Source: Candidatus Heimdallarchaeota archaeon (GTDB lineage Archaea > Asgardarchaeota > Heimdallarchaeia > JABLTI01). From it: DNA of 64,000 bases. Numbering within the stretch: the stretch's first letter is position 1; every line of letters begins with the position of its first letter. Positions 6,331 through 22,916 of this stretch are shown piece by piece. The position numbers and the translations under genes were made by a program. The DNA is taken from assembly GCA_018238155.1 (NCBI GenBank), contig JABCTZ010000019.1:1-64000 (forward strand), in the 5' to 3' direction. The notes below the pieces were generated by a model that saw only the letters and a program-made list of their open reading frames with translations, was not told the DNA's origin and ran no database searches.

Positions 6331-6477
6331 GAAAATGAGCGAATCACTTGATTATTGGAATTGAGAAAAGAGCTTTCCAATAATTATTTCTAATCTAATA
6401 AAGAGTAATTTTATTGATATTTCATTACTTAGCTTTAAATAATGGTGAATAAAATAATTTAATGGAGATAACTGTTA

Positions 6478-6864: not shown

Positions 6865-7097
6865 TGAAGCGGGTCACTAATTTTGTTGAACGAAAGAGAT
6901 GAAGGGGTCATCTCTAACTAAAGATTACTAATTCATTTATTTTTGATCTTTTTTCTGTAGATTAGTAGACACAGTACAACTACCAATACAGCAAATACAG
7001 GTACCCTGCGCTTCACTATCATCATCTTCTCAAGTAAAAGAAAGAACAGATGTAGAAGAAGGATTTTTTTCTGAAAATCGACTTTTACTTTAGGTAT

Positions 7098-7925
7098 TCA
7101 TAATTGATTCTCAAGAAGAAATTCAGTTAATACTCTGTTAAATTCCTTGGGGTTTTCCAAATTTGAAGTATGACCTGCATTATGAATAATTGCCATTGAG
7201 GAATGCTCTATTAATTCGTTCATTTTATTAGCATGTTTAAAAACAGCTTTTGATTCAAATTCACCATTAATTAGTAAAGTGGGAACATTGACTTGAGAAA
7301 GATCTTGAATTTTATAATCATAAATCGCACTAAATATCTTGTTAAATTCCTTAACAGTAAATCTGTTCATTTCTCCTTTTTCATAGTCAATAATACTATC
7401 ATCCTCACCAACCCACTTCTTCCCTCGAGACACTTTGGCAAACCAAAAAGCAAAGTTAGTATATCGTTTTACTCCAAATATTCGCACTATTAGTAGAAAC
7501 AACCATTTTGGGGCAAAAAGATACTTTAGTAGCTTATCGCCGAATGTAAGTTCAGAAGAAATTGCGGTATCAGATAGAATAAGTGCTTTAATACCATAAT
7601 CAGAGAATTTTGTTGCTAAAACTTGAGCAACCATTCCACCCATTGAAAGTCCAACGATAATTGGATTTCTTATTTGAAGCTTTTCTAACATCTCTTTCAA
7701 ATCAAAAGCAAATAACTCCATTGAATATCTCTTCTTCAAAGAACCGCCAGTACGTCCATGACCTCGAATATCAAAAGTAATAACTTGATAATTATTTGAA
7801 AAATGTTTCACTTGGGGCGCCCACATCTTGTGACTGACCCAGCCACCATGAATAAAAAGCAAAGGATGTCCTTTGCCAAGAATTTCATAATAAATATCAA
7901 TATCACTAATAGCTATTTTTGGCAT
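7098..7925 (-). CDS. Alpha/beta hydrolase
   Basis: FIHGG, DIRGHG, GLSMGG nucleophile elbow, AGH. Confidence 0.9.
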   Translation of the reverse strand: MPKIAISDIDIYYEILGKGHPLLFIHGGWVSHKMWAPQVKHFSNNYQVITFDIRGHGRTGGSLKKRYSMELFAFDLKEMLEKLQIRNPIIVGLSMGGMVAQVLATKFSDYGIKALILSDTAISSELTFGDKLLKYLFAPKWLFLLIVRIFGVKRYTNFAFWFAKVSRGKKWVGEDDSIIDYEKGEMNRFTVKEFNKIFSAIYDYKIQDLSQVNVPTLLINGEFESKAVFKHANKMNELIEHSSMAIIHNAGHTSNLENPKEFNRVLTEFLLENQL

Positions 7926-8080
7926 AATAATACTTCTCTTTATTCATTTGAATAGGTTTCTCATAAGCATTAAATAAAATCAAAAAAAGGAAAATATTCC
8001 TTCAATGAGCATGATAATGGGTTACAAATAATTTGTAGTATAATTCAAATAACAGAAATAACATCATAATAAATCCAGAG

Positions 8081-8890
8081 TTGAGCATTGACGTGGAAAT
8101 TACGAATGTAATAGCTATTGTTGTATTCATTGGACCTACTCTAGGAATAATTGCTTTTCTAATAGGGATGAAATTAACAGGTATGGAACGAAGAAATTAT
8201 TCTGTTCGTAAATCAAGTGATATCGTTAATGGAAAAAAGGCAATTGAGATAGTTGAAAAATATAAGCCAATAATATATCAAACGGATAATATAGAGAAAG
8301 ATATTCAATTCCTTTTTTATGAGCTAGTGGAACAAAAGGAAAAAATAGTACTAATCTATAGACCAGTATGGAATGACGAAATACATCCTAACCCGATCAT
8401 TCACTCATTATACAAATACTTTAGATGGATTTTCTATGGATCAGTAAAAGACATAGAATTTATTGAAATTTATATTGACAAAAAAACAGGCGAAGTAGAA
8501 TCATTCAATTATGAAACTCTAACAGAAGGGTCTACAATAGAAGCTCCTGAACACGAATTCACAGAAATAGAGAAGAAAGGGGAAAAATACTACAACAAAA
8601 CGAAGGGAAAAGAACTTGGTTATAGTCCATTTGAAGAGTATCGATGCATTTTACAAGTGAAAACTTGGAATCATTTACTAAGCATCACAGAAAAACCTCA
8701 GGGAAAGAAGTTTGACAGTCCTGTAACACCCTTAACAAATTGGCTATTTAGGAAATATTCTATCTCAAGAAGATCAACCGGGTATATAAGAACAAAATCA
8801 AAGAAATGGGTGAAATATATGGTGTCATTTGTATTACTGATTGTTTTTGGTATTGGTTTCCCACTTGTACTGTATTCCATCCTTCTGTAA
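8081..8890 (+). CDS. Hypothetical membrane-anchored protein
   Basis: 269-aa ORF with N- and C-terminal TM segments. Confidence 0.6.
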   Translation: MSIDVEITNVIAIVVFIGPTLGIIAFLIGMKLTGMERRNYSVRKSSDIVNGKKAIEIVEKYKPIIYQTDNIEKDIQFLFYELVEQKEKIVLIYRPVWNDEIHPNPIIHSLYKYFRWIFYGSVKDIEFIEIYIDKKTGEVESFNYETLTEGSTIEAPEHEFTEIEKKGEKYYNKTKGKELGYSPFEEYRCILQVKTWNHLLSITEKPQGKKFDSPVTPLTNWLFRKYSISRRSTGYIRTKSKKWVKYMVSFVLLIVFGIGFPLVLYSILL

Positions 8891-8985
8891 TCAGCATGAA
8901 TTCCAATTAAGGTGGAAATATCTTCTCAACGTTAGCAAGGAAAAGAGGAGCAAAATTTCAACTTTGTTTTCTATAGGATGTTGAT

Positions 8986-9246
8986 TTAGAGGTTTGAATT
9001 TTCGGTCTGTTTGCTAGTTTTGCGCAATCGGCTAAAACTTACTCCAAAGATTATTGTTGGAATCAATGAGATAAGAAAAACAAAAGCCATAATTAACGTC
9101 ATTGTTGGTAAGATAAAGTATTCCTCAGTCAAACCCACAATAATAGTTCCAATAAGAAGAAATACTGATAAAATAAGGAAGATAATAAAGAAGCTAATCC
9201 TTCTTCTAATTCTTTTTGTTAGATTTTCTGCCAAAGTATTGAACAT
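8986..9246 (-). CDS. Small 2-TM membrane protein
   Basis: 86 aa, two hydrophobic helices. Confidence 0.5.
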   Translation of the reverse strand: MFNTLAENLTKRIRRRISFFIIFLILSVFLLIGTIIVGLTEEYFILPTMTLIMAFVFLISLIPTIIFGVSFSRLRKTSKQTENSNL

Positions 9247-9655
9247 CCATATTCTTTTCTAGAAATAACAACGTGAAAGTACTTTTTAAAGAAATCGTAA
9301 GAACAAAATAATTGATAGATGTTCTTTAAATATTACCAATTACAAGTACAACAACCTATATACTATAATCTCCTAAGTCAACCTCAAAATCTCTAAATGT
9401 CCTATAATTTTTAATATGAATGTGTTTAATTCTCACTATTTATATGCCCCAATATTAATCTTCGAAGTTTAAAATAGAATTAATTGTTGTTTATTATGTA
9501 AACAAAAATTAGCCCATTTTCCAAATTCATTATATCTATACCAACATTGTTTTTAAATATAATTCTGATGAAAAAATAATGAAGAACTCAATTTAATTAC
9601 TTGGCTTAAGAAAAATAAGACGAAAACAATAATATAGCTTTCTTTACCTTCTTCT

Positions 9656-10393
9656 TTACTCAATTTTACAAACATCTGTTAATCTACAATTCCAGCAAGA
9701 AGTTTCGATTAATGGAAATTTCTCTTGGGAAATCTCGGAGAGTATTCGTTGATAAGATTCTTGAAAAGATAATAACTCATCTACTTTCAATTCAAAGATT
9801 CTCTCAATTCCTGATTTGTAATAATAGCAACCAATTTCTACTACATTATACAAGAATTCATCATATTCCATATTTTCAGCCCTAAAGTTGTTTAACAAAT
9901 TTGCATAAAATACCAGTGCTAGCTTATCATTTTGATGAGGTTCAGATTTATAGTCAATTATTCTTAATCCATCTTTACTCTTGCACAATTCCACACAATC
10001 AATTATTCCTCTCTGCCTTTCTGTCATTAATCGTGACTCTGTTTGAACAGGTATCCAGTAATCAGAGTCTTCGAAATATTTTCTCTGTTGATACAACCAA
10101 TAAAGTAATTTTATTTGATTACTAGCAATTTCTTTTGGTGGTTCTGGTTCAGTTATTCTATTCCGATATTTTTTATGAAACGTTTCAAAGAATGAGTGTT
10201 TGATTATTCCATTCAAATTATCTCCACTATAATTACGCAGAACATAGCTAGAAGTGCTCCTTTTTGAATTCATGAAAGCCGTCTTGTAGGGTATTGGATT
10301 CAATATTCGATGAATGCGGAATTTCTGAAGGCACTCAAGATAATACAAATATTCCGTTTTGCTTAAATTTATTTCATAATCAAGAACTACCAT
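9656..10393 (-). CDS. Cas4-like PD-(D/E)xK nuclease
   Basis: N-terminal YLEC, RGIID...IIDYKS, LVFYA helix, C-terminal CWNCxxxxxC (four-Cys Fe-S staple of Cas4/RecB-type nucleases). Confidence 0.75.
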   Translation of the reverse strand: MVVLDYEINLSKTEYLYYLECLQKFRIHRILNPIPYKTAFMNSKRSTSSYVLRNYSGDNLNGIIKHSFFETFHKKYRNRITEPEPPKEIASNQIKLLYWLYQQRKYFEDSDYWIPVQTESRLMTERQRGIIDCVELCKSKDGLRIIDYKSEPHQNDKLALVFYANLLNNFRAENMEYDEFLYNVVEIGCYYYKSGIERIFELKVDELLSFQESYQRILSEISQEKFPLIETSCWNCRLTDVCKIE

Positions 10394-10399
10394 CCTTAT

Positions 10400-11095
10400 T
10401 CACCCCTTATGTTTTAAAGAAAAAACCAAAGAAGGCTCTTCCATAAGTAAACTTTCAATGTTCTTCAGAATTCCTTTTTTCTTCCCTACTTTACTATGCC
10501 AATACATCGAAGCTATTTTTTCAGCTAATTGCTCTATTGATCGTTTATTAGCTGGAAGAATTCTCTTTTTTTCTCCCTCTAATTTCTCTCTCTTTTCCTC
10601 ATATTTTGCTAATTTAGAATAATAATTTCTTGTTGCTTTTTTCAGATCTACCAGTGAACTTTTTGGTATTTTTTTCTGATGTTTCAGACAGTGGAATAAC
10701 CTCAATTCTTGCAATGATATGCGTTCAAATTTATTGTTGAAAAAATCTTCAAGGGTAAGACAGCAATTCTTTTTGCCAGTAGCATCTCGAGAGTATATTA
10801 GTAATCCACTCTCTTCTAATGCATCACAATATTTCTTTGTCTGATCCCAAGACCAAGGAAGTGCGGAACGAATTTCATGCAAACTCTTACTAGATAATTC
10901 CCCCATCTCAAATAATTCATTTATCCAATTGACGAGGAATGCGTGTGTTCGTATGAATCCTTTTTGAGCTATAGTTTTGATTACTAGGCTCAAATTTCGA
11001 TGATTGTTCTTCTTCACTAGTTTATAATCATGTTCTCGTTGTAGACAAGCAACATTCTCATGCAACAATGCTATACAATCTTTCTCAAAAACCAT
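10400..11095 (-). CDS. Putative winged-HTH DNA-binding protein in the cas1-cas4 operon
   Basis: SLHEIRSALPWSWDQTKKYCDALEESGLLIY resembles a wHTH; tightly packed between cas1 and cas4. Confidence 0.5.
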   Translation of the reverse strand: MVFEKDCIALLHENVACLQREHDYKLVKKNNHRNLSLVIKTIAQKGFIRTHAFLVNWINELFEMGELSSKSLHEIRSALPWSWDQTKKYCDALEESGLLIYSRDATGKKNCCLTLEDFFNNKFERISLQELRLFHCLKHQKKIPKSSLVDLKKATRNYYSKLAKYEEKREKLEGEKKRILPANKRSIEQLAEKIASMYWHSKVGKKKGILKNIESLLMEEPSLVFSLKHKG

Positions 11096-11108
11096 AATCT
11101 TACCACCT

Positions 11109-13127
11109 TCAATTTACCTCATCAATCGATAAAGGCTTAAAAACAAAATTCTCTGAAAAGAACCGTTGAGAGAAAGTTTGTATTTGTTGCCGTTCCTTTT
11201 GAGTTAAAACATCTATCCTCTTTGTTTGTTGTAGCTTCTTCCAAAGAGTGAGTAGTTTGCTATTTGTTGATTGTTCTCTGCCTGTTAATTCTACAGAATG
11301 ATTTGCCAGTTTATTCACGAGTTCTTTCTGTTGCTGAAGATAGCTTTCATACGCTCGTTTAAGGTTCGTGTTTTGTCCCGAGGTTAAACTTATTGTTGTA
11401 TTAAGAGCACGCAAACCGATTTTTCTAATGAGTGTGTGAACATCTGAGTTGGGTTCAACACAGTAGTACGGGTCATAGCGTTTCCCTCGATTGACTAGAA
11501 AGTCGCCAGGACGTATTTCTTCGTTTCGGATTGCTTCATGAATCCAGAGTAAAGCAATGATCTTAGCTTGTTCGATAGTATCCAAGTATAAACCGAAGGA
11601 ATAACCTCGATGACACCAGCCACGAAAACCATCCCAAGCAAGAGAAATGACATTATAGATCTCCTTCTTCAAGTATGAAGTAATGATCAAGTTGACACCA
11701 TTAATAAGAGAATCATAAGCAGAACGAGCATAGAAATAGGCAAAGGGAAGGAACCGTTCAAAACGAACCATACGAGAAACGCTACGAGCGGGAGTCAGGA
11801 AACCATATTTCTGTGCTTCACGTTTTAATGGTTCAACCATCAAACTACTAACACCACCTTCATATCTTTGCCACTGCTTGAAATGAAGACTAGGCACACT
11901 CCAATAATTGCGAATAGTGTCTTTCATGTTGTCTAATGCATCGATAAAATAGATTTTCAGGTCAGCATCAACAAATTTTCGTATCTTCGTTTCAATAAGC
12001 GTTACTCGTGTTCGAAGGTTTGCTTGAAAAGTAGGGATATTGAGAATACTGCTAGCAATAAGGAGCTCATTACCACCAACCTCTTTATCCTGTGGTTCGA
12101 CACTTTCGATAGTATCAATTGGGGAATAGAGTCTGATTTTATAGTAGAGTTTGAGACCTGTTGCAGGATCAATCTTGTGGAGTAGATTCTCAAGATAATG
12201 ATAATCATCCCAGTGCTTTGCATAAATATATTTTAACTTTCGAAGAGGAAAATAAGTCAGATCAGCAGAATGGACCAGCTCTTCTGTAGTGGTTTTACTG
12301 CCAATAAATAAGTTCTCTTCTTTAGTACGAAGAGTAAAACTGCCAGGTTTAATGATAGAAATACCATACCAATATTTTTCTAGAGAGTCGAGACTATCCT
12401 TATTTTGAGGTGGAAGTGTTTCGCCAGTAAGATCATGAAAGCTCTTCTGGAGAATGTCAAAATGACTGTCCCAATAGTACACACGATAATCATCAAAGTG
12501 CTCATCATATCCAAATTCCATAGGCGAACCACAGTGAGGACAGTAAAAAGTAGTAGAACCAATTCTGATGTTCTGCAAATAAAAACTAAATGCACCAATA
12601 ACTTGCTTGCAACGGTCAATCGGACAACGAAAGAATTCACCATCTCTATTCTCTCGAATAAAACGAGCCATCGTTCTACTCTTCAGTTGTCCAGGCACTC
12701 GACAGTTAAAGAATTCGCATTTGGGAGCATCACGAGGAACTGCTTGAAGAGCTACCCGGAGTTTCAAATGAGCAGCCATAAGCGAAGGATTGCTCTTGAA
12801 AGCAAGGTCTAATAATGTGCACCTTTGGATAGCAGATAACCACTGACAAGCACCACAATTAGATCGGTCATCAGTTGGAGCTTCATCTTCTTGAGGTTGT
12901 CCTTCTGAACTATAATATAACCGAACAGATCGTTCAAGGGATTGCTTGTCAGTATAATACTGAATATTTCCTTGGACAGCAAGGGTACGTAATACTTGAC
13001 AGATTTGTGAATGGCTCCTGTTTAAATTAATAGCAAGATCCTTACTTGAAACAGCTTGTGTGGGATCTACGCGGTCATGCACCAAAGATGCAACTAAAGA
13101 GCGAAGATCATTTCTACCTGTTCTCAT
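11109..13127 (-). CDS. cas1: Highly divergent Asgard-type Cas1 integrase with N-terminal wHTH and Cys-rich Zn-binding domains
   Basis: C-terminal Cas1 catalytic pattern YEG...ARSAYDSLINGVNL...GWCH..SFGLYLDTIE (canonical EG...D.vNalLN...GflH...L..DlmE). N-terminal wHTH, CGAC/CPxxxC/CPHC clusters. Start placed at MRTG (13127, GAGG upstream); the ORF track starts at 13193. Confidence 0.7.
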   Translation of the reverse strand: MRTGRNDLRSLVASLVHDRVDPTQAVSSKDLAINLNRSHSQICQVLRTLAVQGNIQYYTDKQSLERSVRLYYSSEGQPQEDEAPTDDRSNCGACQWLSAIQRCTLLDLAFKSNPSLMAAHLKLRVALQAVPRDAPKCEFFNCRVPGQLKSRTMARFIRENRDGEFFRCPIDRCKQVIGAFSFYLQNIRIGSTTFYCPHCGSPMEFGYDEHFDDYRVYYWDSHFDILQKSFHDLTGETLPPQNKDSLDSLEKYWYGISIIKPGSFTLRTKEENLFIGSKTTTEELVHSADLTYFPLRKLKYIYAKHWDDYHYLENLLHKIDPATGLKLYYKIRLYSPIDTIESVEPQDKEVGGNELLIASSILNIPTFQANLRTRVTLIETKIRKFVDADLKIYFIDALDNMKDTIRNYWSVPSLHFKQWQRYEGGVSSLMVEPLKREAQKYGFLTPARSVSRMVRFERFLPFAYFYARSAYDSLINGVNLIITSYLKKEIYNVISLAWDGFRGWCHRGYSFGLYLDTIEQAKIIALLWIHEAIRNEEIRPGDFLVNRGKRYDPYYCVEPNSDVHTLIRKIGLRALNTTISLTSGQNTNLKRAYESYLQQQKELVNKLANHSVELTGREQSTNSKLLTLWKKLQQTKRIDVLTQKERQQIQTFSQRFFSENFVFKPLSIDEVN

Positions 13128-13905
13128 GTAACCTCTTCTCCAGTATAAAATCATCAACCATAAGACTATGGGGACCGATAGAAGATTCATCAAGCCAAGG
13201 AGGAAGCTCCTGGTAATCGGTAAAGACTGAGAGAATAATCTCTATCAATTCTTTATCATTCAAATCGTTAGCTCGAGTAATTTCCACTTGATTGATCCGA
13301 GAAACAACCTCTTCAGAGAATAGTTGTAAGGAATTATCATCATAATCATCCGATTCTTCTCTCTTCGAATCCTTCGCATAAGCAATCGTTCGTTTAATCT
13401 TTTTGACCCACTCAAACCATTCCTGATACTCAGCAATTGATTTATCAACGGTTCGTTCCTTCAGTTGAAGGAAGGTCAGAAATTTAGGAACATTCTCAGC
13501 AGAAGGAAGAAAACCGAAGGAATGATCGTCACTACAACCATCTTCACTATCCAACTTATTAGCTAACCAAGCATTAAAACCGAAAAAACGAAACAAAGCA
13601 CTAGAAAGAAAAGGATGGTCAAGCTGAAGATCAACAACACGACGACGACCTGAACGATAATACGTAATAAGACCAAGATTTGCCAGTGACTTGAGACTAG
13701 AACCAATAGCATTAGGGGATCGGTCTAGAAACCGACAAAGAAAACCAACAATATTGACAAACTTGCATGTGAAATTCAAGATAAACAATAACTGAAGTGT
13801 AAGCAAAACTTCCTCCATAACAGGAGTGAATTTAACATTCATATTCAACTCAGCAAAACGATACTCGTCTACCTCTGTTAAGACAAGATTATTCTGAAAC
13901 TTCAT
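13114..13905 (-). CDS. ArsR/MarR-like winged-HTH protein, first gene of the cas1 operon
   Basis: LCRFLDRSPNAIGSSLKSLANLGLITYYRSGRRRVV. ATG start chosen because 13956-14070 is a repeat region. Its stop overlaps the cas1 start. Confidence 0.6.
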   Translation of the reverse strand: MKFQNNLVLTEVDEYRFAELNMNVKFTPVMEEVLLTLQLLFILNFTCKFVNIVGFLCRFLDRSPNAIGSSLKSLANLGLITYYRSGRRRVVDLQLDHPFLSSALFRFFGFNAWLANKLDSEDGCSDDHSFGFLPSAENVPKFLTFLQLKERTVDKSIAEYQEWFEWVKKIKRTIAYAKDSKREESDDYDDNSLQLFSEEVVSRINQVEITRANDLNDKELIEIILSVFTDYQELPPWLDESSIGPHSLMVDDFILEKRLHENR

Positions 13906-13955
13906 AAGATTTTTCTCCAACAGAACTCTCCGACAAAATTGCTTATAAACCTCTA

Positions 13956-14070
13956 ACTCACAAAAAATACCAGAATGCCTTCCCAATACTCACAAATAAT
14001 TCAGAAAACCAATGCACTTCTAGGTAAATTTACGCAAATTTCCTTCACTCACAAAAAATTCTGTAAACTC
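13956..14070. repeat. Three iteron-like direct repeats ACTCACAAAWAATW upstream of the cas1 operon
   Basis: actcacaaaaaataccag (13956), actcacaaataattcag (13988), actcacaaaaaattctg (14047). Confidence 0.7.
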
Positions 14071-14235
14071 CTTTAGTCCGCGCTATTCTTACTTCTAAGA
14101 ATGCCAATTTTCCTCTTCTTATCCCTTCTCATGACTAAATAAACCCCTCTTGTACATTAGCGAAAGTTAAACTCTATTCCTATTAACAAAGTACTCAAAG
14201 AAGAAAAAAATTGTTGAAATTTAAATTTGCTTTTT

Positions 14236-14358
14236 TCAAGATTCCAATTCATTCATTCGTTTCTCAAATGCATCAAGTCTTCTCCAAACTTCTTTTATTT
14301 GTTCATCAAGCTTTTGCTCTAGTTTGTCAATTCTTTTGTTTACGTACATGCTACTCAT
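14236..14358 (-). CDS. Unannotated 40-aa coiled-coil protein
   Basis: MSSMYVNKRIDKLEQKLDEQIKEVWRRLDAFEKRMNELES*; heptad pattern; GAGGA upstream. Confidence 0.55.
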   Translation of the reverse strand: MSSMYVNKRIDKLEQKLDEQIKEVWRRLDAFEKRMNELES

Positions 14359-14519
14359 TATTATCCTCTTCCTATATTGATTTTCTAATAGTTACTCGCG
14401 TTGGAACGTTAAGCAAGACCACTGTAAGTGGGCTTGTAGTGACCGCGAATCTGCGACTAGCAGAGCTATTAGGAATTTCTTTCTTCTATGAACACTACTT
14501 AAAAAATAGATTAGTATAT

Positions 14520-16094
14520 TTAATGATTTTCTTGTTTTACTAGGTTACTAAAAGTTTTTAAAAAATACCTTACAACTCCATTCCTAATTAGATTTTTTTC
14601 TATTTCTGTTCCAAAATGTTCTTCAATTTGAGAAAGCAATTTCTTATCATCTGAATCAATTCGAATATAACTTTCATAAAAAATCATTTTTTTTGCAAAG
14701 TATTTTAGTTGGGCATTTGGTCTCAAATCAAGGAAAACTGGTGCTGCTCTAAACCTTCTATATTGTATTCGACGTCCATGATAAAGTAAAAATTCCATCA
14801 AAGATTTTTTCTCCTCTGATAAAATTTTTTCAAGTACTTTTATTGATACTGCACTTTTTCCTGCTTCTATATATTGAACAGACTTAGTACTAATCCCTAG
14901 TTTCTGTGCAAACTCAAATTGTGTTGTTTTTTTTCTATATCCCTTTAGTAATTGTCCTAATCCAACTATTTGTAAATCTGATATTAAACTAAAATCAAAA
15001 TAGCCGTTTGGTATAGTGTCTTTCTTGAAATCTTGAAATTGATAAGAAATTTTGCTTTTTATCTCTCTTCCTTCTTTTAACTTTAAGAATTGCACCCTCT
15101 TTTCAGGATGACAACTGTACATTTCACTCTTGTATATTTGATTATACTTTCTAGGAATGTATATTTGAAATGTATTGTCTGGTCTTTCAGTTAATCTTGA
15201 CTTGATAGATAATGATACTAAGAATCTAGTGAACTCATTTACATAAAATTTACTTGCACTTGTGAATGTAATACTGCCACTAGCATAGCTCCCATCAGCA
15301 TCCATTACACCAGACCAATAATGTGAACGAAATGGTTGTTCTTGGAAAAGTAACGGCTCACGTAATTTTTGATATTTCCTTCCACCAATAGGTTGATTTG
15401 TAAGAAAAGAAAATAATCGTGCTACCCAGAGATTGGTAATAATGAGTTTCGGGCAATTCTCAGTTTGAAGTTGAATTCTCCCTGTTTGCTTGAATAATCG
15501 TTCGAACTGTTCCTTTAACTGTCGAATGTTTTCAATGGAATAATCAACAATATTGAGAACATATTTAGTGATATTCCCATCACCATTGACCATACCACAA
15601 AGATAAGCAAGCTCAGTAGTTAAGCTAGTAGGCATCGCAAAGGTTTCACCTCGAGAGGATTCAAGTATTCGTTCATGGAAATTAAGTTCAAAGTGATCCG
15701 GAAAGCAACGATAGAAGGGCAGGGGAACAGCACCTCGCTCGAGATACTTTCGAAGGATATCACGCCATTCGAGGATCTTACGATTATCAGATCGGTAAAA
15801 ATAATCACGCAATTTTTCAGCGACAAGAAGGTCTTGATTACTTACAAGTTCCTTTTCCTCCTCAGTAAGCTGAACATAGGGTAAACGAGCAAGGATACGG
15901 TCAGAATGTTTTTCCCGGACAAAATCCGCCCTGCGAACAAGGATAGGAAAAAGGTTGAGAATATTGGTACCTTCAAGAATGATTTCTTTTCCTCGATTGC
16001 TTTCTAGTAACTCATTGGCGTTTATCCACTGATTGACCGGCTTAACCTCTGCATCAAAATAGATCGAATCATTAAGCCAATTGAGCACTGCCAA
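14520..16094 (-). CDS. Stand-alone double-motif LAGLIDADG endonuclease with C-terminal XRE-type HTH
   Basis: LAYLCGMVNGDG and YWSGVMDADGS motifs; TQFEFAQKLGISTKSVQYIEAG; no intein splice junctions. Confidence 0.8.
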   Translation of the reverse strand: MAVLNWLNDSIYFDAEVKPVNQWINANELLESNRGKEIILEGTNILNLFPILVRRADFVREKHSDRILARLPYVQLTEEEKELVSNQDLLVAEKLRDYFYRSDNRKILEWRDILRKYLERGAVPLPFYRCFPDHFELNFHERILESSRGETFAMPTSLTTELAYLCGMVNGDGNITKYVLNIVDYSIENIRQLKEQFERLFKQTGRIQLQTENCPKLIITNLWVARLFSFLTNQPIGGRKYQKLREPLLFQEQPFRSHYWSGVMDADGSYASGSITFTSASKFYVNEFTRFLVSLSIKSRLTERPDNTFQIYIPRKYNQIYKSEMYSCHPEKRVQFLKLKEGREIKSKISYQFQDFKKDTIPNGYFDFSLISDLQIVGLGQLLKGYRKKTTQFEFAQKLGISTKSVQYIEAGKSAVSIKVLEKILSEEKKSLMEFLLYHGRRIQYRRFRAAPVFLDLRPNAQLKYFAKKMIFYESYIRIDSDDKKLLSQIEEHFGTEIEKNLIRNGVVRYFLKTFSNLVKQENH

Positions 16095-16172
16095 TTATTT
16101 TTCCTCAGCAGCTTTGGTCAAATAAGAAATAAATACTCTTCTCTAAAAGAATTATTTCTACCTTAAAAATAG

Positions 16173-16487
16173 CTATTTCTTTATTATTTTACGCTCTCTA
16201 TAATTTGATTCAGCAGTAAAATTCTCATCATCAGGATAGTATGAAGTTCTTACCCAAATAATCTTAGTTTTAAAATCAGGTTCACATGGAATATGTACAA
16301 ATCGACTATTTTCTAATTCCCCCCACAACAAGTACCGTCCATCTTTTGTATCCTCAATAACATCCCATTGTCGAACAATTTCTTCTATTTCATCTGGTGG
16401 TATACTTCGCTCTCTCCAACGAAGCTCTCCATGTCCTCTCTGAAAGCGAATAATAAATTCTTTGTTTTTTTCTTTAAAGTGGTTCAT
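16173..16487 (-). CDS. DUF4258-like (RelE/BrnT-fold) putative toxin
   Basis: H...R..ER.I...EI......VIED....RYLLWG......HI.......V.TSY.P pattern. Confidence 0.6.
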   Translation of the reverse strand: MNHFKEKNKEFIIRFQRGHGELRWRERSIPPDEIEEIVRQWDVIEDTKDGRYLLWGELENSRFVHIPCEPDFKTKIIWVRTSYYPDDENFTAESNYRERKIIKK

Positions 16488-16614
16488 GGAACTAGAGGGG
16501 GAAATATATAAATCTTGTGCATCTATACACTACACATGTGTTTATCCTCTGGATCTATTATTTGCTGAAATAGTGTTTCCATTTCCTAAATCTCATTTAT
16601 TGAATAACTGAACC

Positions 16615-17370
16615 GTGAGAAAAATGAAACAAAGTAATCCCTATTCTAAAGAAGAGAAATTTAGAGAACTAATAAAAGAAGCTTACAGAAAAGTCTTCAT
16701 CACGGAAAAACAAAAAACCGCACTTTTAGCAAAATATAATCGAAAGTATGATGGAGACGCTCTGTCCATGCAAGATAGAAATGCTCTGCGAATGCTAAGA
16801 AAAACTATAATACAGTATCGAACTTCTGTGTCTGAGTCTGCAATAGCTGCTCTAAAATTTGAAAGTGTTCTTGAATTACTTTCACTTGTGGATAAAAGCT
16901 CTGGTATTTATTGTCATGTTTGTAAAGTGGGAATATTAGTATCACGAACCGTGAGTTCTTGGATTGTGGGTAAGGATTATGAATTAATTTTAGAACAGAA
17001 ACCTGCGAAAGTATGTAGTAACAATACTTGTAAAAGTACTTCATTTAGCTTAGCAGTAGAGAAATATGAGGATGAGCTAATCAATGAAGTTGAAAAGCAA
17101 TTACGATCGATTAGAATTACAAACACCGAAAAATTAGATCAAAAGAAATGTCCGCAGTGCCGTTCAGAAACGTTAGAAGCAAACCATACTGGTGATGTAT
17201 ACAAATATCATCAGGGATTATATCATATCAAGATCAGGGATGTTCCACTAAAAGCATATTGCAACATTTGTCACTATCAAGAAGTAGGAGAAAATATAAT
17301 AATAGAATTGGAAAAATTAGAAACCCTCTTAGATACTGAAACACTCGAATTGTTGAAATTGGATGGCTAA
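16615..17370 (+). CDS. Protein with two YgiT/MqsA-type zinc fingers (putative antitoxin)
   Basis: CHVC..G...KPAKVC...C and CPQC...IRDVP..YCNIC. Confidence 0.6.
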   Translation: MRKMKQSNPYSKEEKFRELIKEAYRKVFITEKQKTALLAKYNRKYDGDALSMQDRNALRMLRKTIIQYRTSVSESAIAALKFESVLELLSLVDKSSGIYCHVCKVGILVSRTVSSWIVGKDYELILEQKPAKVCSNNTCKSTSFSLAVEKYEDELINEVEKQLRSIRITNTEKLDQKKCPQCRSETLEANHTGDVYKYHQGLYHIKIRDVPLKAYCNICHYQEVGENIIIELEKLETLLDTETLELLKLDG

Positions 17371-17420
17371 TAAATTAAATTCTCTCTGCTAATAACTATA
17401 CTAAACACTGTTATAAATTG

Positions 17421-17597
17421 CTATTTTGTCAACTCAAAAACTATCTTCTTTGACCCATCAAGATAACACAACACTTCTTCTCCAGGTTCAATATTGAGTG
17501 CCTCAACTAATTCTAATGGAATGCTGACCCGATGTGTTCCAGAACTGAAAATTATTTTTCTCTTAAAGATAATTTTAGGATCTTTTTCTTCATCCAT
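17421..17597 (-). CDS. AbrB/MazE/SpoVT-family DNA-binding protein (missing from the ORF track)
   Basis: MDEEKDPKIIFKRKIIFSSGTHRVSIPLELVEALNIEPGEEVLCYLDGSKKIVFELTK*; typical V.IP......L.I.PG..V motif. Confidence 0.8.
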   Translation of the reverse strand: MDEEKDPKIIFKRKIIFSSGTHRVSIPLELVEALNIEPGEEVLCYLDGSKKIVFELTK

Positions 17598-17653
17598 ATC
17601 TAATCACAATAAATGATGGTTTAAAATATTTAAAAATGCTGTTCAAATCGGTC

Positions 17654-17700
17654 AGAGAAGTGCTTATATATGATGACTAACAACATAATAATATGATGAT
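17654..17700 (+). promoter_or_regulatory. Putative BRE/TATA promoter of the cas7 operon with ATATGATGA direct repeats
   Basis: agagaagtgcTTATATAtg; atatgatga at ~17668 and ~17691, between the divergent AbrB and cas7 genes. Confidence 0.45.
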
Positions 17701-17721
17701 TGAGCTAATTGGTGAACAAAA

Positions 17722-18489
17722 ATGAATGTCTCTCGAAACTTTAAGCGAATAAAAATAACCGCAAAAACAGCAATAGCAAAACCCGGGAACGGGCAAATTG
17801 GGGGAGGAAATACCAAGAACTTATTACTAGTTCATAACGGACGAGGGTATGGGCGAGAAGGAAAGAGATACCTAGTGAAGGGATTAAGAGGATTGCTAAA
17901 TCATTCAATGATGGAGCTTGCAAAACAAAAAGGAATAGAAGTATGTCACTCATCGGACAAAAAAGAAACACAAACAGGAGAAAAATTGCTACCAGACGCA
18001 TTTCATCCAAACGGCTCGTGCTATCCAGAAGAGGAGTGCATAAGACACAGATTAATGGGTTCAATGAAAAAACAATCAGTGCTGCGATTTGAACCAGTAG
18101 TGATAGTATCGGATAATATAACAGGGGAGTTCGAAGACGCACAGAAAATACACATAGCAACGGACAAAAGAAATGCGCTAGTGCAAGGAACAAAAAGAAG
18201 CATACAAGATTTCGGAGAAAGATACATAGCAGGAGAATTTACCTATTCGATAGAATTATTGAAAGAAATCTCTCTAGAAGAAATGGGATTCTTACTGAAA
18301 AGTATTCTCTACATGCCAGAATTGCGGTGGGGTGCATCAGGAAATAATGGAGCGGGAAAATTAGAATTAGAAGAAGTAAATCTACAAGAAGTAATGCGCA
18401 CAAGAACTGTCAAGAAAGGAAAAGTGTCCGAAAAAGAAAATGAAAAAAATCTTTGGAAACAAATGGAGGAGGGACTTAAAGCTTGGTAA
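17722..18489 (+). CDS. Cas7-group RAMP (Csm3/Csf2-like) backbone protein
   Basis: KGLRGLL; C...C..HRLMGS...SVLRF Zn region; E..IAGEFTYSIEL; EMGFLL; G-loop WGASGNNGAGKL. Confidence 0.8.
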   Translation: MNVSRNFKRIKITAKTAIAKPGNGQIGGGNTKNLLLVHNGRGYGREGKRYLVKGLRGLLNHSMMELAKQKGIEVCHSSDKKETQTGEKLLPDAFHPNGSCYPEEECIRHRLMGSMKKQSVLRFEPVVIVSDNITGEFEDAQKIHIATDKRNALVQGTKRSIQDFGERYIAGEFTYSIELLKEISLEEMGFLLKSILYMPELRWGASGNNGAGKLELEEVNLQEVMRTRTVKKGKVSEKENEKNLWKQMEEGLKAW

Positions 18490-19466
18490 TAAGGGAAATA
18501 TATACACTAGAAGGAGAATTGCTGTCACCAATTATTGTTTCTTCATCATTGATAAAGAAAGGAAGAATTTGGATTAGAATAGTAAGGGAGTTAGGAACTG
18601 AAGAAAAACCACAAAAGAGCTTCACTGCGAAACTAATAAAGGGGGAACGAAAAGCACCAGACCATGTGAACGCATACAGAGGATTTGTGAGAATAACTAC
18701 AGTTGATTCAAACACATCTCGAGCGAAGAAAAACATTGATCTCTATCTTAACAAAGATTTCCTTGGAAGACGTGTAAACGAAGGATTTGGAAAAGTCAAG
18801 TGGTTGAATTATAAAATAGAAAATTACGTAAGAAATGCAACTGAAAAAAAACAAAAGAAATTCAGAATACGAAAAGGACTAGGACCAAATTATCCAAAAG
18901 AATTGCAAAGATTGCTTAGAGCTCTAATGTTACATGATTTTGTGGAAACAGAAAAACATCCAAGTAAGATATTCAAAGAAATTTCAATTAAGGATGAGGA
19001 AATAAGAGAAGCTTGCTTAAAACATCATAATGTAGGATACTGCAAGAATATACTACTCCCACTGGTCAGGTATTATGACCATTTAGCTGCATACATGAAC
19101 AGAAAAAGCGTACACATAAGAAACTGCAGATATGATTATGAGAATGGAAAAATAGATTTTGAAAAATTAGCTAATGACATAGAAGAAAGACAACAATCTG
19201 CCTATAAATTATATAATTTCATCTATTACTCAAAAGAATTAAGTAGAACAGTGGAAGCAATGAAATTTGGAAAAACATCTCTGCGAGATCATTTGTTGTT
19301 AATGGCTAATCTAGCTATACATGGCTACTGCAATAGGTGGTTAATAATGGAAAATGGAAAAATTGAACTCGAAAAGAAAATCTCATCATCGGTAACAAGA
19401 AAGGATGAACTTGAATGTGCTAAAGATGTTGAGATGCATCTGTTATCTAGTATGAGCAATGCTTAA
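18483..19466 (+). CDS. Cas5-like RAMP fused to a Cas10-type (permuted) HD nuclease
   Basis: YTLEGELLSPIIV first RAMP strand; FLGRRVNEGFGKV G-loop; LHDF, CLKHH, YYDHLA, SLRDH; overlaps the cas7 stop. Confidence 0.8.
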   Translation: MVIREIYTLEGELLSPIIVSSSLIKKGRIWIRIVRELGTEEKPQKSFTAKLIKGERKAPDHVNAYRGFVRITTVDSNTSRAKKNIDLYLNKDFLGRRVNEGFGKVKWLNYKIENYVRNATEKKQKKFRIRKGLGPNYPKELQRLLRALMLHDFVETEKHPSKIFKEISIKDEEIREACLKHHNVGYCKNILLPLVRYYDHLAAYMNRKSVHIRNCRYDYENGKIDFEKLANDIEERQQSAYKLYNFIYYSKELSRTVEAMKFGKTSLRDHLLLMANLAIHGYCNRWLIMENGKIELEKKISSSVTRKDELECAKDVEMHLLSSMSNA

Positions 19467-19542
19467 TCGTAGAGTACGTTCAACTCAATGATCGAGAAAG
19501 TAAAAAACATAACTGGGTAAAAAATAGCAAATAGAAGCTATT
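19380..19542 (+). ncRNA. Putative structured ncRNA overlapping the 3' end of the RAMP-HD gene (copy 2)
   Basis: Covarying stems shared with 5433-5595, continuing 76 nt past the stop codon. Confidence 0.6.
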
Positions 19543-19554
19543 AGAAAGTAAAAT

Positions 19555-19699
19555 TGGCGCCCCGAACGGGATTCGAACCCGTTTATGGTGCTTGATTTTT
19601 TTTCAAGCTTGTCCATCGGGCTCTGCAGCCAAAAGCTTGCAGTGCACATTTCTTGGCTTTGACAGCCGAAGATGATGAGCCGTACTACACTATCAGGGC
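19555..19699 (-). tRNA. tRNA-Asp(GUC) with two BHB introns (37/38: 19621-19659; 48/49: 19583-19610); CCA encoded
   Basis: Acceptor stem GCCCUGA/UCGGGGC-G-CCA, CU-GUC-A loop, T arm ACGGG-UUCGAAU-CCCGU after splicing; both inserts form bulge-helix-bulge motifs. Confidence 0.9.
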
Positions 19700-19772: not shown

Positions 19773-21089
19773 TTAAAATATCTTAATTTCTACTATGTGT
19801 TCTATTGGATATTTATCTGTGTAGTTTCCCGGGTCGATAATATATTCTACTCCTGGGAACCATACTAATTCTGACCAGTAATTCCCTTGATCGGTTTCTT
19901 CATCAAACCATTTTGTAAATCCTACAAAATCAGAACAATTACCTTCTACCCTTGCTTGTGAGTGGATTTCTGTGATGTTATTATAGTTATTGTCTATGAA
20001 ATTATTATTCCATATTGTTGCATTTACTGCTTCCGTTTCTATTCCGTATTGTTCATTGTGCTCTAATATGTTGAAATTGATAGCTGTAATATTTGAACAT
20101 CGTAAAGACATTCCTATAGTATTATCAAAGCAACTATTATTTGTTATAGTACAGAGATCATTCATTAACATTGCAATACCATATTCTCTATTAGATTTGA
20201 AAGCATTGCTTTGACAACAGCTGTTTTTGCTTCTAACCATCAACAACCCAAAATTGCTTCCCGTACAATTGTTTCCAATTATTGTACAGTTGTTTGAATA
20301 ATATACACCTATCCCCCGAAAAGAATTATTAGTTATATTATTGTTTAGTAACCTAATATTTACGCAATCCAAAATACCGATACCATAGTTCCCATTTTCT
20401 ATGGTATTATTTTCCACAATTACATTTGAAGCTGTAAGAATGTCGATATCCTCTGAACCAGTATTTGTGAAATAATTATTCTGAACAGTTACATTATCTA
20501 CCTGACTTAAGGTTATTCCGTAATCACAACTTTGGAAAATATTTCCTTCTACTCTCGAATTATTACTCATATATAATTCAACCCCTCCATCATTATAATT
20601 TCTGTAAAATCTATTGCTTGTAATATTTACAGTTCCAAAACGTACCTCAATTCCTTGCCGGTAATTTCTATCGAAAGAATTATTTGTAATTAGGCATTTC
20701 TCGAGATAACTGATAGAGATTCCAATATCTCCTCCAATTAAATTATTTTTAATAACTATAGTTCCATCTGCAGTGATATTTGATAGTTTTATTCCACATG
20801 ACAGCCTACAATTTTGAATGATAAAATGCTTTGTTACTCCACTAATTTTGATACCATATAGGACTCCTTGCAAGGTATATCCCTCTATAATGTATGGTTC
20901 TTCCTTTGTGCCTTTCCCTGGAAAGTTATATTTCCAGTAGAAATCTGAATCTCTCTTAATCTCTATTATCTCGATATCTTTTCTTAGATTAATCCATCTA
21001 CCCAAGAAAATTCCTGAAATTGTTACAGAACAAACTAATACAACAATTAGAATTACTTTTACTGATTTTTTTAAGTCTCTGAATCCCAC
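19773..21089 (-). CDS. Membrane-anchored right-handed parallel beta-helix (NosD/CASH-like) protein, paralogue 1
   Basis: N-terminal TM, G.GT.E.PYII, many GI.l....N..I..N repeats, GNYWS. Confidence 0.85.
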   Translation of the reverse strand: MGFRDLKKSVKVILIVVLVCSVTISGIFLGRWINLRKDIEIIEIKRDSDFYWKYNFPGKGTKEEPYIIEGYTLQGVLYGIKISGVTKHFIIQNCRLSCGIKLSNITADGTIVIKNNLIGGDIGISISYLEKCLITNNSFDRNYRQGIEVRFGTVNITSNRFYRNYNDGGVELYMSNNSRVEGNIFQSCDYGITLSQVDNVTVQNNYFTNTGSEDIDILTASNVIVENNTIENGNYGIGILDCVNIRLLNNNITNNSFRGIGVYYSNNCTIIGNNCTGSNFGLLMVRSKNSCCQSNAFKSNREYGIAMLMNDLCTITNNSCFDNTIGMSLRCSNITAINFNILEHNEQYGIETEAVNATIWNNNFIDNNYNNITEIHSQARVEGNCSDFVGFTKWFDEETDQGNYWSELVWFPGVEYIIDPGNYTDKYPIEHIVEIKIF

Positions 21090-21338
21090 TCTGAATTCCT
21101 CTTCGATTGTTTGGTAATTGTAGTATTTATACCTTTCAGTTTTGAAAAATAATGATTGTATAAATCATTTGACATATTTCTTTATGAAAACAGTTTTCTT
21201 TACATTATATTTTGATCATTACTATTTTGATTTAAGAAATCTTCTTATTTTTGTAATCGATTGTTTATGTACCTTTTTTCGGGGGGATGATAATTTGAAT
21301 AAAAGGTTTTCACTGTTTTTTGTTTTCTTTTTCTTGCT

Positions 21339-22652
21339 TTATATTTTGATTGTCACTGGTTCTTCTAGGGGATAGTTATCTGTGTAATTTCCTGGATCGA
21401 TAATATATTCCATTCCTGAGAACCATACTATATCCGACCAGTAATTCCCTTGATCGTTTTCTTCATCAAACCATTGTGGGTATCCAACATAATCAGTACA
21501 GTTTCCCGCTACTTTAGCTTGTGCTTGTATTGATGGTATGTTATTGTAGTTATTATCTATAAAATTATTATTCCAGATAGTTGTGTTTACTCCTTGTGTC
21601 ACCATTCCATATTCCAAATTATGTTCGAATACATTGAAGCTAATTCTTGGTATCCTTGAACAATATAGTTCCATCCCAAGTGTATTGTTATAGTATGAAT
21701 TATTATTTATCTCTGTAGAGTAACTTAACCAAACATAAAGTCCACTAACATTATTCGAAATAAGATTATTGTTGGAAAAGAGGCTATCTGAAATTCCATA
21801 AGCAGAAATTCCGTAATAAACATTTTTAGAACAATTATTTTCCTTAATTAAGCCATTGTTTGTGTAACTAATTAATAACCCAGAACCATTCTCTGTTAAA
21901 TTATTTCCCACAATATTGACATTTTGACTATAAACAATAGCAACACCTAAACCACAATTTATTACTGTGTTATTATCAAATTGGATATTCTTTATATATT
22001 GCATTTGTGCACCCCATCTTGTACAGTTTATGAGATAATTTTTCTCTATAGATATTAGTTCAGAATCCAAAATTGTAAATCCATCTTCGCAAGAATCGAA
22101 GGTATTTTTCTTTATGCTTGTATTATAATTATCTAGTACATGTATTCCATCTCCTTGATTTTTGAGAAAAGTATTTGAAGTAATTTCCAAGCTACCAGTA
22201 GATGTTGCTTCTATTCCTCTGCCATTTTTGAAGAATTTATTACCACTTATTAGGCAATTGCTACTTATTCTTATAATAACCCCATAGTCATTACTTTGTA
22301 TAGTATTGTTTACTATTTTTGCAATACCATTTGATAATCCTCTTAAATCAATACCCTTATTGGAGTTTCGTAAAACACAATTTTGAATGACAAAATGTTT
22401 TGTTATATCATAGATTTTGATATTGTGAAACCTATTACCAGATAATTCATAGCCATCAATAATAAACGGATCTTCTTCTGTTCCTTTTCCAGGAAAGTGA
22501 TATTTTCGAGAAAAATCCTTATCCTCATATATTTCTATCACATTTATTGGTCGAAACCATACACCTAAGAAAATTGCAGTTCCAGTTATTGTTACAACTA
22601 ATCCAATTATTACTATTGTAAGAACTTTGTTGTTTATTTTCTTCAATTCCAA
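21339..22652 (-). CDS. Parallel beta-helix (NosD/CASH-like) protein, paralogue 2
   Basis: Same architecture; GNYWSD...IDPGNYTD.YPL. Confidence 0.85.
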   Translation of the reverse strand: MELKKINNKVLTIVIIGLVVTITGTAIFLGVWFRPINVIEIYEDKDFSRKYHFPGKGTEEDPFIIDGYELSGNRFHNIKIYDITKHFVIQNCVLRNSNKGIDLRGLSNGIAKIVNNTIQSNDYGVIIRISSNCLISGNKFFKNGRGIEATSTGSLEITSNTFLKNQGDGIHVLDNYNTSIKKNTFDSCEDGFTILDSELISIEKNYLINCTRWGAQMQYIKNIQFDNNTVINCGLGVAIVYSQNVNIVGNNLTENGSGLLISYTNNGLIKENNCSKNVYYGISAYGISDSLFSNNNLISNNVSGLYVWLSYSTEINNNSYYNNTLGMELYCSRIPRISFNVFEHNLEYGMVTQGVNTTIWNNNFIDNNYNNIPSIQAQAKVAGNCTDYVGYPQWFDEENDQGNYWSDIVWFSGMEYIIDPGNYTDNYPLEEPVTIKI

Positions 22653-22916
22653 TTTCTCACCATTTTGTTATATGTAGCACTATAAATACCATTTCAGATT
22701 TTACATTGAGTAATTCTAATGTTTTTTTTGTTTCTTATAGGTTAAGTGAATTTCTGTAAATTCTCTCTACATTTCTAGGATTTGTTTTAAGATGCCTTTT
22801 TCCTTTCTTTTCCAACTGAATTTTCTTAATCATTAATTCATTCTAGTCTTAGTGAAAGGGAAATTTGAGTGCCTGCTAGAAAATATTATATTAAGCAATT
22901 AATTACTCACATTAAA

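Follow-up and report, generated by a model that had tools for sequence, protein, structure and literature searches.

Why does a set of genes derived from a CRISPR (clustered regularly interspaced short palindromic repeats) system retain a Cas1 when it has no repeat array? This question is raised by an island of genes beside a tRNA-Asp gene in the 64,000-nt stretch of DNA analysed here (the window), which comes from a Candidatus Heimdallarchaeota archaeon. The minus strand of the island (9656-17597) carries, in this order, genes for a Cas4-like nuclease, a protein X, a Cas1-like protein and a winged helix-turn-helix (wHTH) protein, then a 534-nt spacer and genes for LAGLIDADG-HTH, DUF4258 and AbrB/MazE-like proteins. 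On the plus strand lie a YokU-type gene (16615-17370), a cas7 gene (17722-18489) and a gene fusing a RAMP (repeat-associated mysterious protein) domain to an HD nuclease domain (RAMP-HD, 18483-19466), followed by tRNA-Asp on the minus strand (19555-19699). We favour, with a probability of roughly 0.6, the reading that this island is a polymerase-less, Cas1-driven element targeting tRNA genes, combined with an array-less nuclease module.

An earlier note on this DNA, made from the sequence, had described an array-less CRISPR-derived island with Cas1, Cas4, Cas7 and Cas5-HD. That gene content is real, since folds and profiles agree, and the comparisons which the note proposed did return Cas1, Cas4 and RAMP folds. 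The description as array-less also holds: searches of the island with Pfam, NCBIfam and PADLOC detected no Cas2, Cas6, Cas8/Cas10 palm domain or Cas3 helicase, a k-mer scan found no CRISPR array on the contig, and no CRISPR repeat family was present at the Rfam gathering score. With Cas2 and array both absent, the island is not an adaptation module of Cas1-Cas2 acting on an array with a leader. The genome as a whole (assembly G000: 4.08 Mb, 46 contigs, G+C content ~33%, in which the window's contig is C17) is not array-less, because the k-mer scan located arrays with a 37-nt repeat on contigs C12, C15 and C27; a canonical Cas1 adjoins the C15 array and type III RAMPs are encoded on C26. A genome-wide array search, as the note had suggested, thus clears the contig but not the genome. 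The note's gene list was right in its core parts but omitted the LAGLIDADG-HTH gene (14520-16094), the DUF4258/YokU pair (16173-17370) and the AbrB/MazE-like gene (17421-17597), and it overlooked a conserved 17-nt box and a damaged RAMP-HD copy at 4551-5564. Its placement of the effector end 12 nt from the tRNA CCA was mistaken: the stop codon at 19466 is 88 nt from the CCA (19555-19557).

Two later papers from the same group (PMC8730458, PMC12669027, citing Makarova 2020) present ARAMP (Asgard RAMP) as type III-derived Cas5/Cas7 systems that occur in Asgard archaea, have no array and in most cases include a distinct Cas1; the associated nucleases are of the HNH and PD-(D/E)xK kinds. The study that the earlier note had cited (Makarova et al., CRISPR J 2020) exists and is cited there as the description of ARAMP. 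The island fits this class on every feature taken from those papers and is not a new kind of system: it has an Asgard host (source records give its protein relatives as Heimdallarchaeota, Gerdarchaeota or 'Asgard group'), no array, diverged type III-like Cas7 and Cas5, PD-(D/E)xK and HD nucleases, and a distinct Cas1. Although sequence analysis revealed ARAMP systems in 2020, both their function and the reason for an array-less Cas1 are still puzzling. The novelty of the island as a class is therefore modest, and its value is that the question of ARAMP and Cas1 becomes experimentally specific.

Cas1-like protein and cassettes at tRNA genes

The candidate integrase is a 672-aa protein (11109-13127, minus strand) composed of a winged helix, a Cys-rich zinc region and a Cas1 part. 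Its open reading frame (ORF) extends up to 13193, and homologues begin at the Met at 13127, which is thus the probable start. Comparisons with Pfam, NCBIfam and PADLOC profiles, and with PDB sequences by phmmer, yielded zero matches, and the 18 close homologues (~665 aa) are every one from Asgard metagenomes. The assignment comes from the fold. Using an AlphaFold model built from the homologue alignment (predicted local distance difference test, pLDDT, 82.7; predicted template modelling score, pTM, 0.78), Foldseek returned 28 matches at E<=0.001, all 28 of them Cas1 or casposase (best E 1.4e-7). VIA-align superposed residues 255-669 of the model on Archaeoglobus fulgidus Cas1 (Z 18.1, 286 residues aligned, root-mean-square deviation (rmsd) 6.7) and aligned 242 residues with the Methanosarcina mazei casposase (6opm; Z 17.1, rmsd 3.4). 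Residues 1-77 form the winged helix (Z ~11), and eight invariant Cys lie between it and the Cas1 part. Four residues invariant across 19 homologues (E423, H506, D516 and E519) resemble, as a sequence pattern, the E-H-D/E active-site motif of Cas1 (..GWCH-x9-D-x2-E..). This is a very small family: with its profile, 1.84 billion representatives yielded 31 matches at E<=0.001, among which no full-length match falls beyond the cassette family, and the four weakest are longer proteins matched in their C-terminal part only.

Evidence of movement comes from relatives of the window's genome (G07x and G08x; loci fetched from elsewhere are numbered L0xx). In three congeners (G072, G073 and G075) the genes of the right flank (window 25152-34650) are followed by tRNA-Asp and then directly by the orthologue of a DUF6320 gene that occupies 5608-6330 in the window. 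By this order, window positions 6331-19554 (13.2 kb) and three NosD genes beyond the tRNA are extra. The empty tRNA-Asp site in relatives that the earlier note had hoped for is therefore found as an adjacency in all three genomes, but that of G075 is a deletion remnant. A fourth congener, G074, supplies an occupied site to compare with the empty site of G072. Its contig C246 follows that site at 88.5% identity over 1.75 kb, up to nt 36 of tRNA-Asp, at which point the stop codon of the Cas4-like gene begins and X, Cas1 and wHTH genes ensue. Contig C185 resumes within the LAGLIDADG gene (when laid on locus L026, the two contig ends abut within ~21 nt) and continues through a NERD nuclease gene and a 450-aa ORF to an intact tRNA-Asp, restarting at nt 1, and then to the 5608-6330 orthologue. 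The insertion amounts to ~9.3 kb, and nt 1-36 of tRNA-Asp are duplicated at its two ends (36 bp, one mismatch).

Two paralogous cassettes in the window's own genome are bounded in a similar way. On contig C6, an 8-kb stretch with LAGLIDADG, Cas4, wHTH, Cas1, X and Orc1/Cdc6 genes has an intact tRNA-Leu at one end and a 42-nt copy of that tRNA's 3' half at the other, and on C43 a cassette is flanked by tRNA-Ala on one side and by copies of its 3' end (31 nt and 28 nt) on the other. A further cassette, on C13, is 0.6 kb from tRNA-Val. Altogether, four of the five cassettes in this genome are within 655 nt of a tRNA gene, and none of 20,000 random placements put four or more so close. Pfam and PHROGs searches of the bounded elements recognised neither a tyrosine nor a serine recombinase. 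The earlier note's proposal of a Cas1-driven mobile element is thus supported by the occupied and empty pair with its 36-bp duplication and by the tRNA-half repeats of two paralogous cassettes, but this support is for homologous cassettes and not for the window copy.

On the reading that we favour, the operon of AbrB-like, LAGLIDADG-HTH, wHTH, wHTH-Zn-Cas1, X and Cas4-like genes would be the core of a family of integrative elements that enter or settle beside tRNA genes. The Cas1-like protein would be the integrase, because there is no other recognisable one; its winged-helix and zinc modules, with the accessory wHTH proteins, would pick the DNA ends and the tRNA target; and Cas4 would trim the ends. 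The 17-nt box and a set of iterons near it would serve as an end or operator site. The divergent Cas7 and RAMP-HD genes, on the LAGLIDADG side, would encode a minimal complex like that of Csm3 and Csm4 with an HD DNase, carried as a nuclease module for defence or competition between elements. This pair would be dispensable for integration, since most tRNA-flanked cassettes are without it.

Several observations weigh against this reading. The Cas1 catalytic residues were assigned from a motif pattern with no alignment behind them: hhalign of the family profile with the canonical Cas1 of the same genome gave nothing meaningful, hidden Markov model (HMM) searches with that profile met only weak wHTH matches in PDB, and neither these nor the phmmer comparisons yielded a residue-level mapping onto Cas1. 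Repeats of 31-42 bp equally resemble the attachment (att) sites of tyrosine integrases, and several genes of the bounded elements belong to no known family (such as the 450-aa ORF of G074) and could hide an integrase; the LAGLIDADG enzyme could also drive homing in place of Cas1. The G075 site retains a 3' fragment of RAMP-HD beside an inverted tRNA-Asp, which indicates that at least this site is a secondary deletion and not a never-occupied one. For the window copy itself, no terminal inverted repeats, flanking direct repeats or target duplication were found, and no second tRNA-Asp fragment was detected, Smith-Waterman comparison with window positions 1-19540 being no better than with shuffled sequence. 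Seven other type A loci, ~129 kb in total, contained no tRNA at the Rfam gathering score. Binding of any nucleic acid by the Cas7 and RAMP-HD pair is hypothetical. When the Cas4 end was compared with the sequence upstream of LAGLIDADG in ten loci, the only direct repeats were AT-rich chance matches, and no convincing inverted repeats were found between the 17-nt box and the Cas4-side end or at the ends of the C6 and C43 elements, where ends are AT-rich and boundaries uncertain.

Defence, homing and comparison with casposons

Another explanation, which we regard as unlikely but worth serious consideration, is that the island is a stationary defence locus in a tRNA-linked hotspot. All eight genes would then form one array-less immune system, in which Cas1 and Cas4 work on invader DNA or take part in signalling but do not move the island, and the tRNA-half repeats would stem from other integrases or from recombination. 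ARAMP and the related HRAMP (haloarchaeal RAMP) systems are held to be probable defence systems where the two later papers touch on them (PMC8730458, PMC12669027). The surroundings are consistent with such a role: toxin-antitoxin-like genes and NERD nucleases occur nearby, locus L004 includes a type I restriction system, and the tRNA-Asp locus varies on both sides of the tRNA among congeners, as a hotspot would. The absence of boundary repeats from the window copy also fits, as does the existence of a distant Cas7/RAMP-HD pair that is cassette-free in 17 of 22 genomes of another genus. However, a stationary island would not readily account for a duplication of tRNA nt 1-36 that ends exactly at the Cas4 stop codon in G074, nor for two more cassettes bounded by halves of different tRNAs with no recognisable integrase except Cas1. 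The adjacency of four cassettes in five to tRNA genes is far above chance, and the C6 element contains the replication initiator Orc1/Cdc6, which is typical of integrated plasmids of archaea.

Homing by the LAGLIDADG-HTH protein is the next explanation, and an improbable one. The enzyme would cut the tRNA gene or the 17-nt box, repair would copy the element, and Cas1 and Cas4 would have another role. The 524-aa protein (14520-16094, minus strand), encoded by the first large gene of the cassette, matches Pfam LAGLIDADG_3 (E 3.4e-8) and HTH_3 (E 4e-6; an HTH of the Cro/C1 type). Acidic residues are retained in both LAGLIDADG motifs (..VNGDGN.. and ..MDADGS..), and the gene is the most constant and numerous partner, being found in all cassette loci examined, of type A and type B, and in more than ten copies in the window's genome, solo copies included. 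Next to it, between the LAGLIDADG and wHTH genes at the upstream edge of the wHTH-Cas1-X-Cas4 block, is the 17-nt box TAATGTACAAGAGGGGT (14143-14159, minus strand). The box occurs once in the window's genome and is exact in eight distinct cassette loci (11 entries, some of them duplicates) whose proteins are ~37% identical to those of the window. Nucleotide homology between loci begins precisely at the box and is lost at 14160, where contigs of related strains from two sediment metagenomes (X1 and X2) also stop matching the window. A homology break of this sort beside the LAGLIDADG gene is like that of conversion tracts at a cut site. Target duplications of 31-42 bp are, however, not produced by homing; the distance and orientation of the LAGLIDADG gene relative to the tRNA boundary vary; and insertions that part the box from the LAGLIDADG gene leave it attached to the wHTH-Cas1 block. 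For the wHTH-Cas1-X-Cas4 block, we read the box as a putative end, operator or site of cleavage.

Casposons are among the closest known systems. Family 2 casposons insert at the 3' ends of tRNA genes, and casposon target site duplications measure 14-15 bp. The cassettes resemble casposons in having a candidate integrase of the Cas1 fold (the Z score of 17.1 with the M. mazei casposase), no array, mobile behaviour and an association with tRNA genes. They differ in that no family B DNA polymerase was found in the island or the bounded elements and the flanking repeats of the bounded relatives are 36, 42 and 31 bp. No convincing terminal inverted repeats were found at ends that are AT-rich and of uncertain boundary. 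In addition, HTH and zinc modules are N-terminal, and Cas4, LAGLIDADG and sometimes Orc1/Cdc6 stand in place of the polymerase. Without a polymerase and with a larger duplication, the cassettes fall outside the casposons.

A tentative and rather doubtful extension is that the cassettes represent a living intermediate between casposons and CRISPR adaptation. A Cas1 working with neither polymerase nor Cas2 would insert into tRNA genes and duplicate 31-42 bp, the size of a CRISPR repeat (37 nt in this genome); repeated insertion would produce rows of repeat, cargo and repeat made of tRNA halves, with a minimal Cas7/Cas5-HD nuclease already linked. Were the Cas1-like protein to make such repeat-sized duplications of tRNA genes, this would bear on the origin of the CRISPR spacer integrase from a transposase and might provide a site-specific integrase for tRNA loci. 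New in the present analysis are the recurrent fixed layout of the island, the tRNA-Asp sites of congeners, the 36-bp duplication in G074 and the adjacency of four of five cassettes to tRNA genes. The locus and its relatives also give experimental handles in the form of an exact occupied and empty pair, the 17-nt box, defined partners and a small predicted complex of two proteins.

The Cas7 and RAMP-HD pair

The Cas7 protein (255 aa, 17722-18489, plus strand) is a Csm3-like RAMP. Csm3 models match it weakly, yet they also match 22 of 31 family members, and a PDB search with its profile gives type VII Cas7 (E 3e-4) and Csm3 (E 1e-3). Conserved Cys and His residues are C75, H76, C100, C106 and H109. 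RAMP-HD (327 aa, 18483-19466, plus strand) gave no sequence-profile match and no phmmer match among PDB sequences, and its two domains were assigned from structure matches to a model with pLDDT 83.2. The Cas5/Csm4-like RAMP domain (residues 1-121) is nearest to Csm4, type VII Cas5 and Cas6, and the Z scores of ~7-8 by themselves are only suggestive of this assignment. For the HD domain (residues 138-303), the top 11 VIA matches are all N-terminal HD domains of Csm1/Cas10 (Z 8.1-10.5, 133-152 residues, 14-22% identity), and H151, D152, H159, H181, H182 and D199 are invariant in 37 sequences. The C-terminal tail has been shortened by the stop at 19466; the sequence downstream resembles the tail of homologues and is interrupted by two stops. 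A predicted interface between Cas7 and the RAMP domain scored 0.77 on the interaction prediction score from aligned errors (ipSAE), against 0.01 for the best of three controls; runs shared at least 56% of contacts and partner pLDDT was at least 72. The mark applied to this score is reached by 58 of 80 solved complexes and by 2 of 110 mismatched pairs, and because Csm3-Csm4 complexes have been solved, the predicted interface may reflect likeness to them and not be independent evidence.

The pair thus recalls type III-A Csm complexes, with Cas7 like Csm3, the RAMP domain like Csm4, and an HD domain that can be overlaid on the N-terminal HD of Csm1 with Z scores of up to 10.5. RAMP-HD joins in one chain the counterparts of Csm4 and of part of Cas10, which bind each other in Csm complexes. 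The island differs from type III-A in that the Cas10 palm/cyclase, Cas11, Cas6 and the array with its CRISPR RNA (crRNA) are missing, the 'large subunit' being reduced to the HD domain with no further large gene present. Reduced type III-derived Cas5/Cas7 modules with added nucleases are also seen in HRAMP of Haloarchaea and in type IV-C systems, where Csf1 has a Cas10-like HD. HRAMP, which is likewise without an array and adaptation genes (PMC8730458, PMC12669027), differs in having no Cas1, and type IV-C in retaining arrays and a separate large subunit.

Whether the two modules travel together is answered by their arrangement elsewhere. RAMP-HD and Cas7 on one strand, with LAGLIDADG (sometimes preceded by AbrB), wHTH, Cas1, X and Cas4 on the other, recur in G077 (contigs C9 and C67), G081 (C26), G075 (C89) and a Joint Genome Institute (JGI) metagenome contig, and the proteins of these five loci are 35-65% identical to those of the window. 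Counted by locus, the divergent layout is seen in the window, L022, L023, L024, L025, L004 and L054 and more loosely in L046, and on two short contigs of other genera (L064 and L065) LAGLIDADG is divergent from Cas7/RAMP-HD. A second type of cassette, with Cas4 inverted and Cas1 ~25% identical, has the same LAGLIDADG-Cas7 junction in G077 (C122) and a looser one in the window's genome (C42). The co-occurrence of Cas1 and RAMP modules that the earlier note had asked about is therefore present as one fixed layout in at least eight loci of three genera. Cassettes without Cas7/RAMP-HD are about equally common (L026, L029, L001, L043-45, L047, L052, L055 and L056), and the neighbours of stand-alone Cas7/RAMP-HD pairs in genus g16 belong to no informative families. 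Of 10 genomes in the window's genus, the same 8 have both families; being kin, these genomes do not form an independent count. We conclude that the Cas1 cassette and the Cas7/RAMP-HD pair belong together, although not obligatorily.

This linkage, tight and repeated, also invites the idea that integration is RNA-guided in the manner of CRISPR-associated transposons (CAST), with Cas7/RAMP-HD loading an RNA, possibly a tRNA half, and steering the Cas1 integrase to the matching tRNA gene. We consider this very improbable. The targets are indeed tRNA genes, and Cas7 and Cas5-like RAMPs are RNA-binding scaffolds that are here predicted to bind each other. However, the three clear cassettes bounded by tRNA halves (those of G074, C6 and C43) have no Cas7/RAMP-HD beside them, the invariant HD residues fit a nuclease better than a pure targeting role, and searches near the pair found no conserved structured RNA and no candidate guide RNA. 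The island shares with CAST the combination of a mobile element and a reduced Cas5/Cas7 module; CAST use Tn7-like transposases, crRNA from arrays and effectors without nuclease activity, whereas the island has a Cas1-like candidate integrase, retained nuclease residues and no known guide. That the Cas1 operon and the RAMP pair are unrelated chance neighbours whose proteins have been over-read is scarcely credible: sequence-profile matches are weak for Cas7 and Cas4 and nil for Cas1 and RAMP-HD, but the structure matches are specific and consistent, and synteny across at least eight loci in three genera contradicts it.

Both families are multi-copy and diverged, and RAMP-HD has left many pseudogene fragments. 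About 12 of these lie on contigs C39, C19, C10, C12, C11, C6, C13 and C44 of the window's genome; most span only the C-terminal third (profile positions ~200-335), and one on C39 abuts a Cas4-like fragment. In the window, a second RAMP-HD paralogue (4551-5564, plus strand) is 42% identical to the first. Its N-terminal part is broken by a TGA stop, it shares a CxxC...CxxC zinc-ribbon insert with homologue P0071, and it lacks an adjacent Cas7; the DUF6320 gene (5608-6330), which adjoins tRNA-Asp directly in the three congeners, separates it from the island.

Other genes, conserved DNA elements and the tRNA-Asp locus

The Cas4-like protein (245 aa, 9656-10393, minus strand), encoded by the gene that terminates each type A cassette, is a PD-(D/E)xK nuclease by its match to Pfam PDDEXK_1 (E 3.2e-9, 37.6 bits, cut-off 22). 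Cas4 models themselves match weakly (TIGR00372 cas4 E 0.007, PADLOC Cas4 E 0.002), and reading the sequence reveals four Cys in an Fe-S pattern (N-terminal C21 and C-terminal CxxCx5C), such that both the nuclease core and the Fe-S pattern of Cas4 are present. Protein X (231 aa, 10400-11095, minus strand) has its gene between those for Cas1 and Cas4 in every type A cassette, where its syntenic homologues are 31-52% identical. Pfam returned nothing for X, and a weak Sso10a match and language-model look-alikes in HTH_36/MarR clusters are leads only; it is probably a winged-helix DNA binder. The wHTH protein (~265 aa, ORF 13114-13986, minus strand) matches ArsR/SmtB weakly. Homologues align from about residue 25 on. 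Translation probably begins at the Met at 13905, since the 27 codons of the ORF before it run across an iteron. These iteron-like direct repeats, three in number and ~22 nt long with a consensus of about GTTTnCnGAATTnTTTGTGAGT, lie upstream of the wHTH gene (13957-14068, minus strand) in an alignment of seven loci and are probably operator or binding sites.

The AbrB/MazE-like protein (58 aa, 17421-17597, minus strand) scores just below the cut-off of PF04014 (E 2.8e-5, 24.4 bits, cut-off 24.7). Its gene is kept upstream of Cas7 in 7 of 10 loci, is called MazE_antitoxin in L003 and L004, and is ancestrally the first of the LAGLIDADG-Cas1 operon, divergent from Cas7. An RNA upstream of Cas7 was considered and rejected, the region being this small gene. 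A toxin-antitoxin-like pair recognised with Pfam and NCBIfam, comprising DUF4258 (16173-16487, minus strand) and a YokU/YgiT zinc-finger protein (16615-17370, plus strand), is inserted between the AbrB-like and LAGLIDADG genes in the window and its closest orthologue (L022) only and is outside the core. A second DUF4258/YokU pair in the same genome (G000:C36:813-3955) lies between two 30-31-nt copies of a tRNA-Ala 3' end and resembles a small Cas1-free cassette with tRNA-end repeats at its borders. Behind the tRNA-Ala cassette of C43 there is also a second unit of 2.9 kb bounded by tRNA-Ala 3' copies (G000:C43:128-3050, L044); the 40 nt after each copy are alike too, as expected of tandem related elements. 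On the far side of Cas4, four further genes (6331-9655; 128 aa, an alpha/beta hydrolase, 269 aa and 86 aa) complete the 13.2 kb that are extra relative to the three congeners.

Just past the LAGLIDADG gene, an 80-nt GC-rich stretch (14392-14472, minus strand) is ~97% identical to G077:C9, where its flanks are ~73% identical. Rfam returned nothing for this stretch and its folding z scores were not significant (-1.3 and -1.9), and across all four regions folded as RNA (both strands of this stretch, the box region and the hairpin between RAMP-HD and tRNA) z ranged from -0.07 to -1.86 with none significant. Rfam matches in 13900-14600 were at chance level. That hairpin (19520-19548, 5-6 bp), whose pairing is kept by compensatory changes in G077 and G075, is probably a terminator, and its match to CRISPR-DR17 is at chance level.

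The tRNA-Asp(GUC) gene (19555-19699, minus strand) has two introns, an encoded CCA and its 3' end towards the island. ARAGORN detected no tRNA in the window, nor did Rfam at its gathering score, which the two introns explain; the gene narrowly misses that score of 29 (28.6 bits) and was detected at an E-value threshold only (E 7e-4). ARAGORN labels its orthologues Asp(gtc), the G077 orthologue being 91-93% identical. Intron content varies within the genus, from two (145 nt, window) to one (108-112 nt, G074 and G075) to none (78 nt, G072; L040:9970-10047). On C19 of the window's genome, ARAGORN calls a tRNA-Lys with a 2549-nt 'intron' (G000:C19:11521-14158), which may be spurious or may reflect an insertion within a tRNA gene. 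The three tandem NosD/beta-helix paralogues (19773-24538, minus strand) on the 5' side of tRNA-Asp are present there in G077 and absent in G072, G073, G074 and G075, and a NosD-like gene also flanks the L001 cassette. Finally, four sediment metagenomes contain, as contigs, 6-12% of the window's words.

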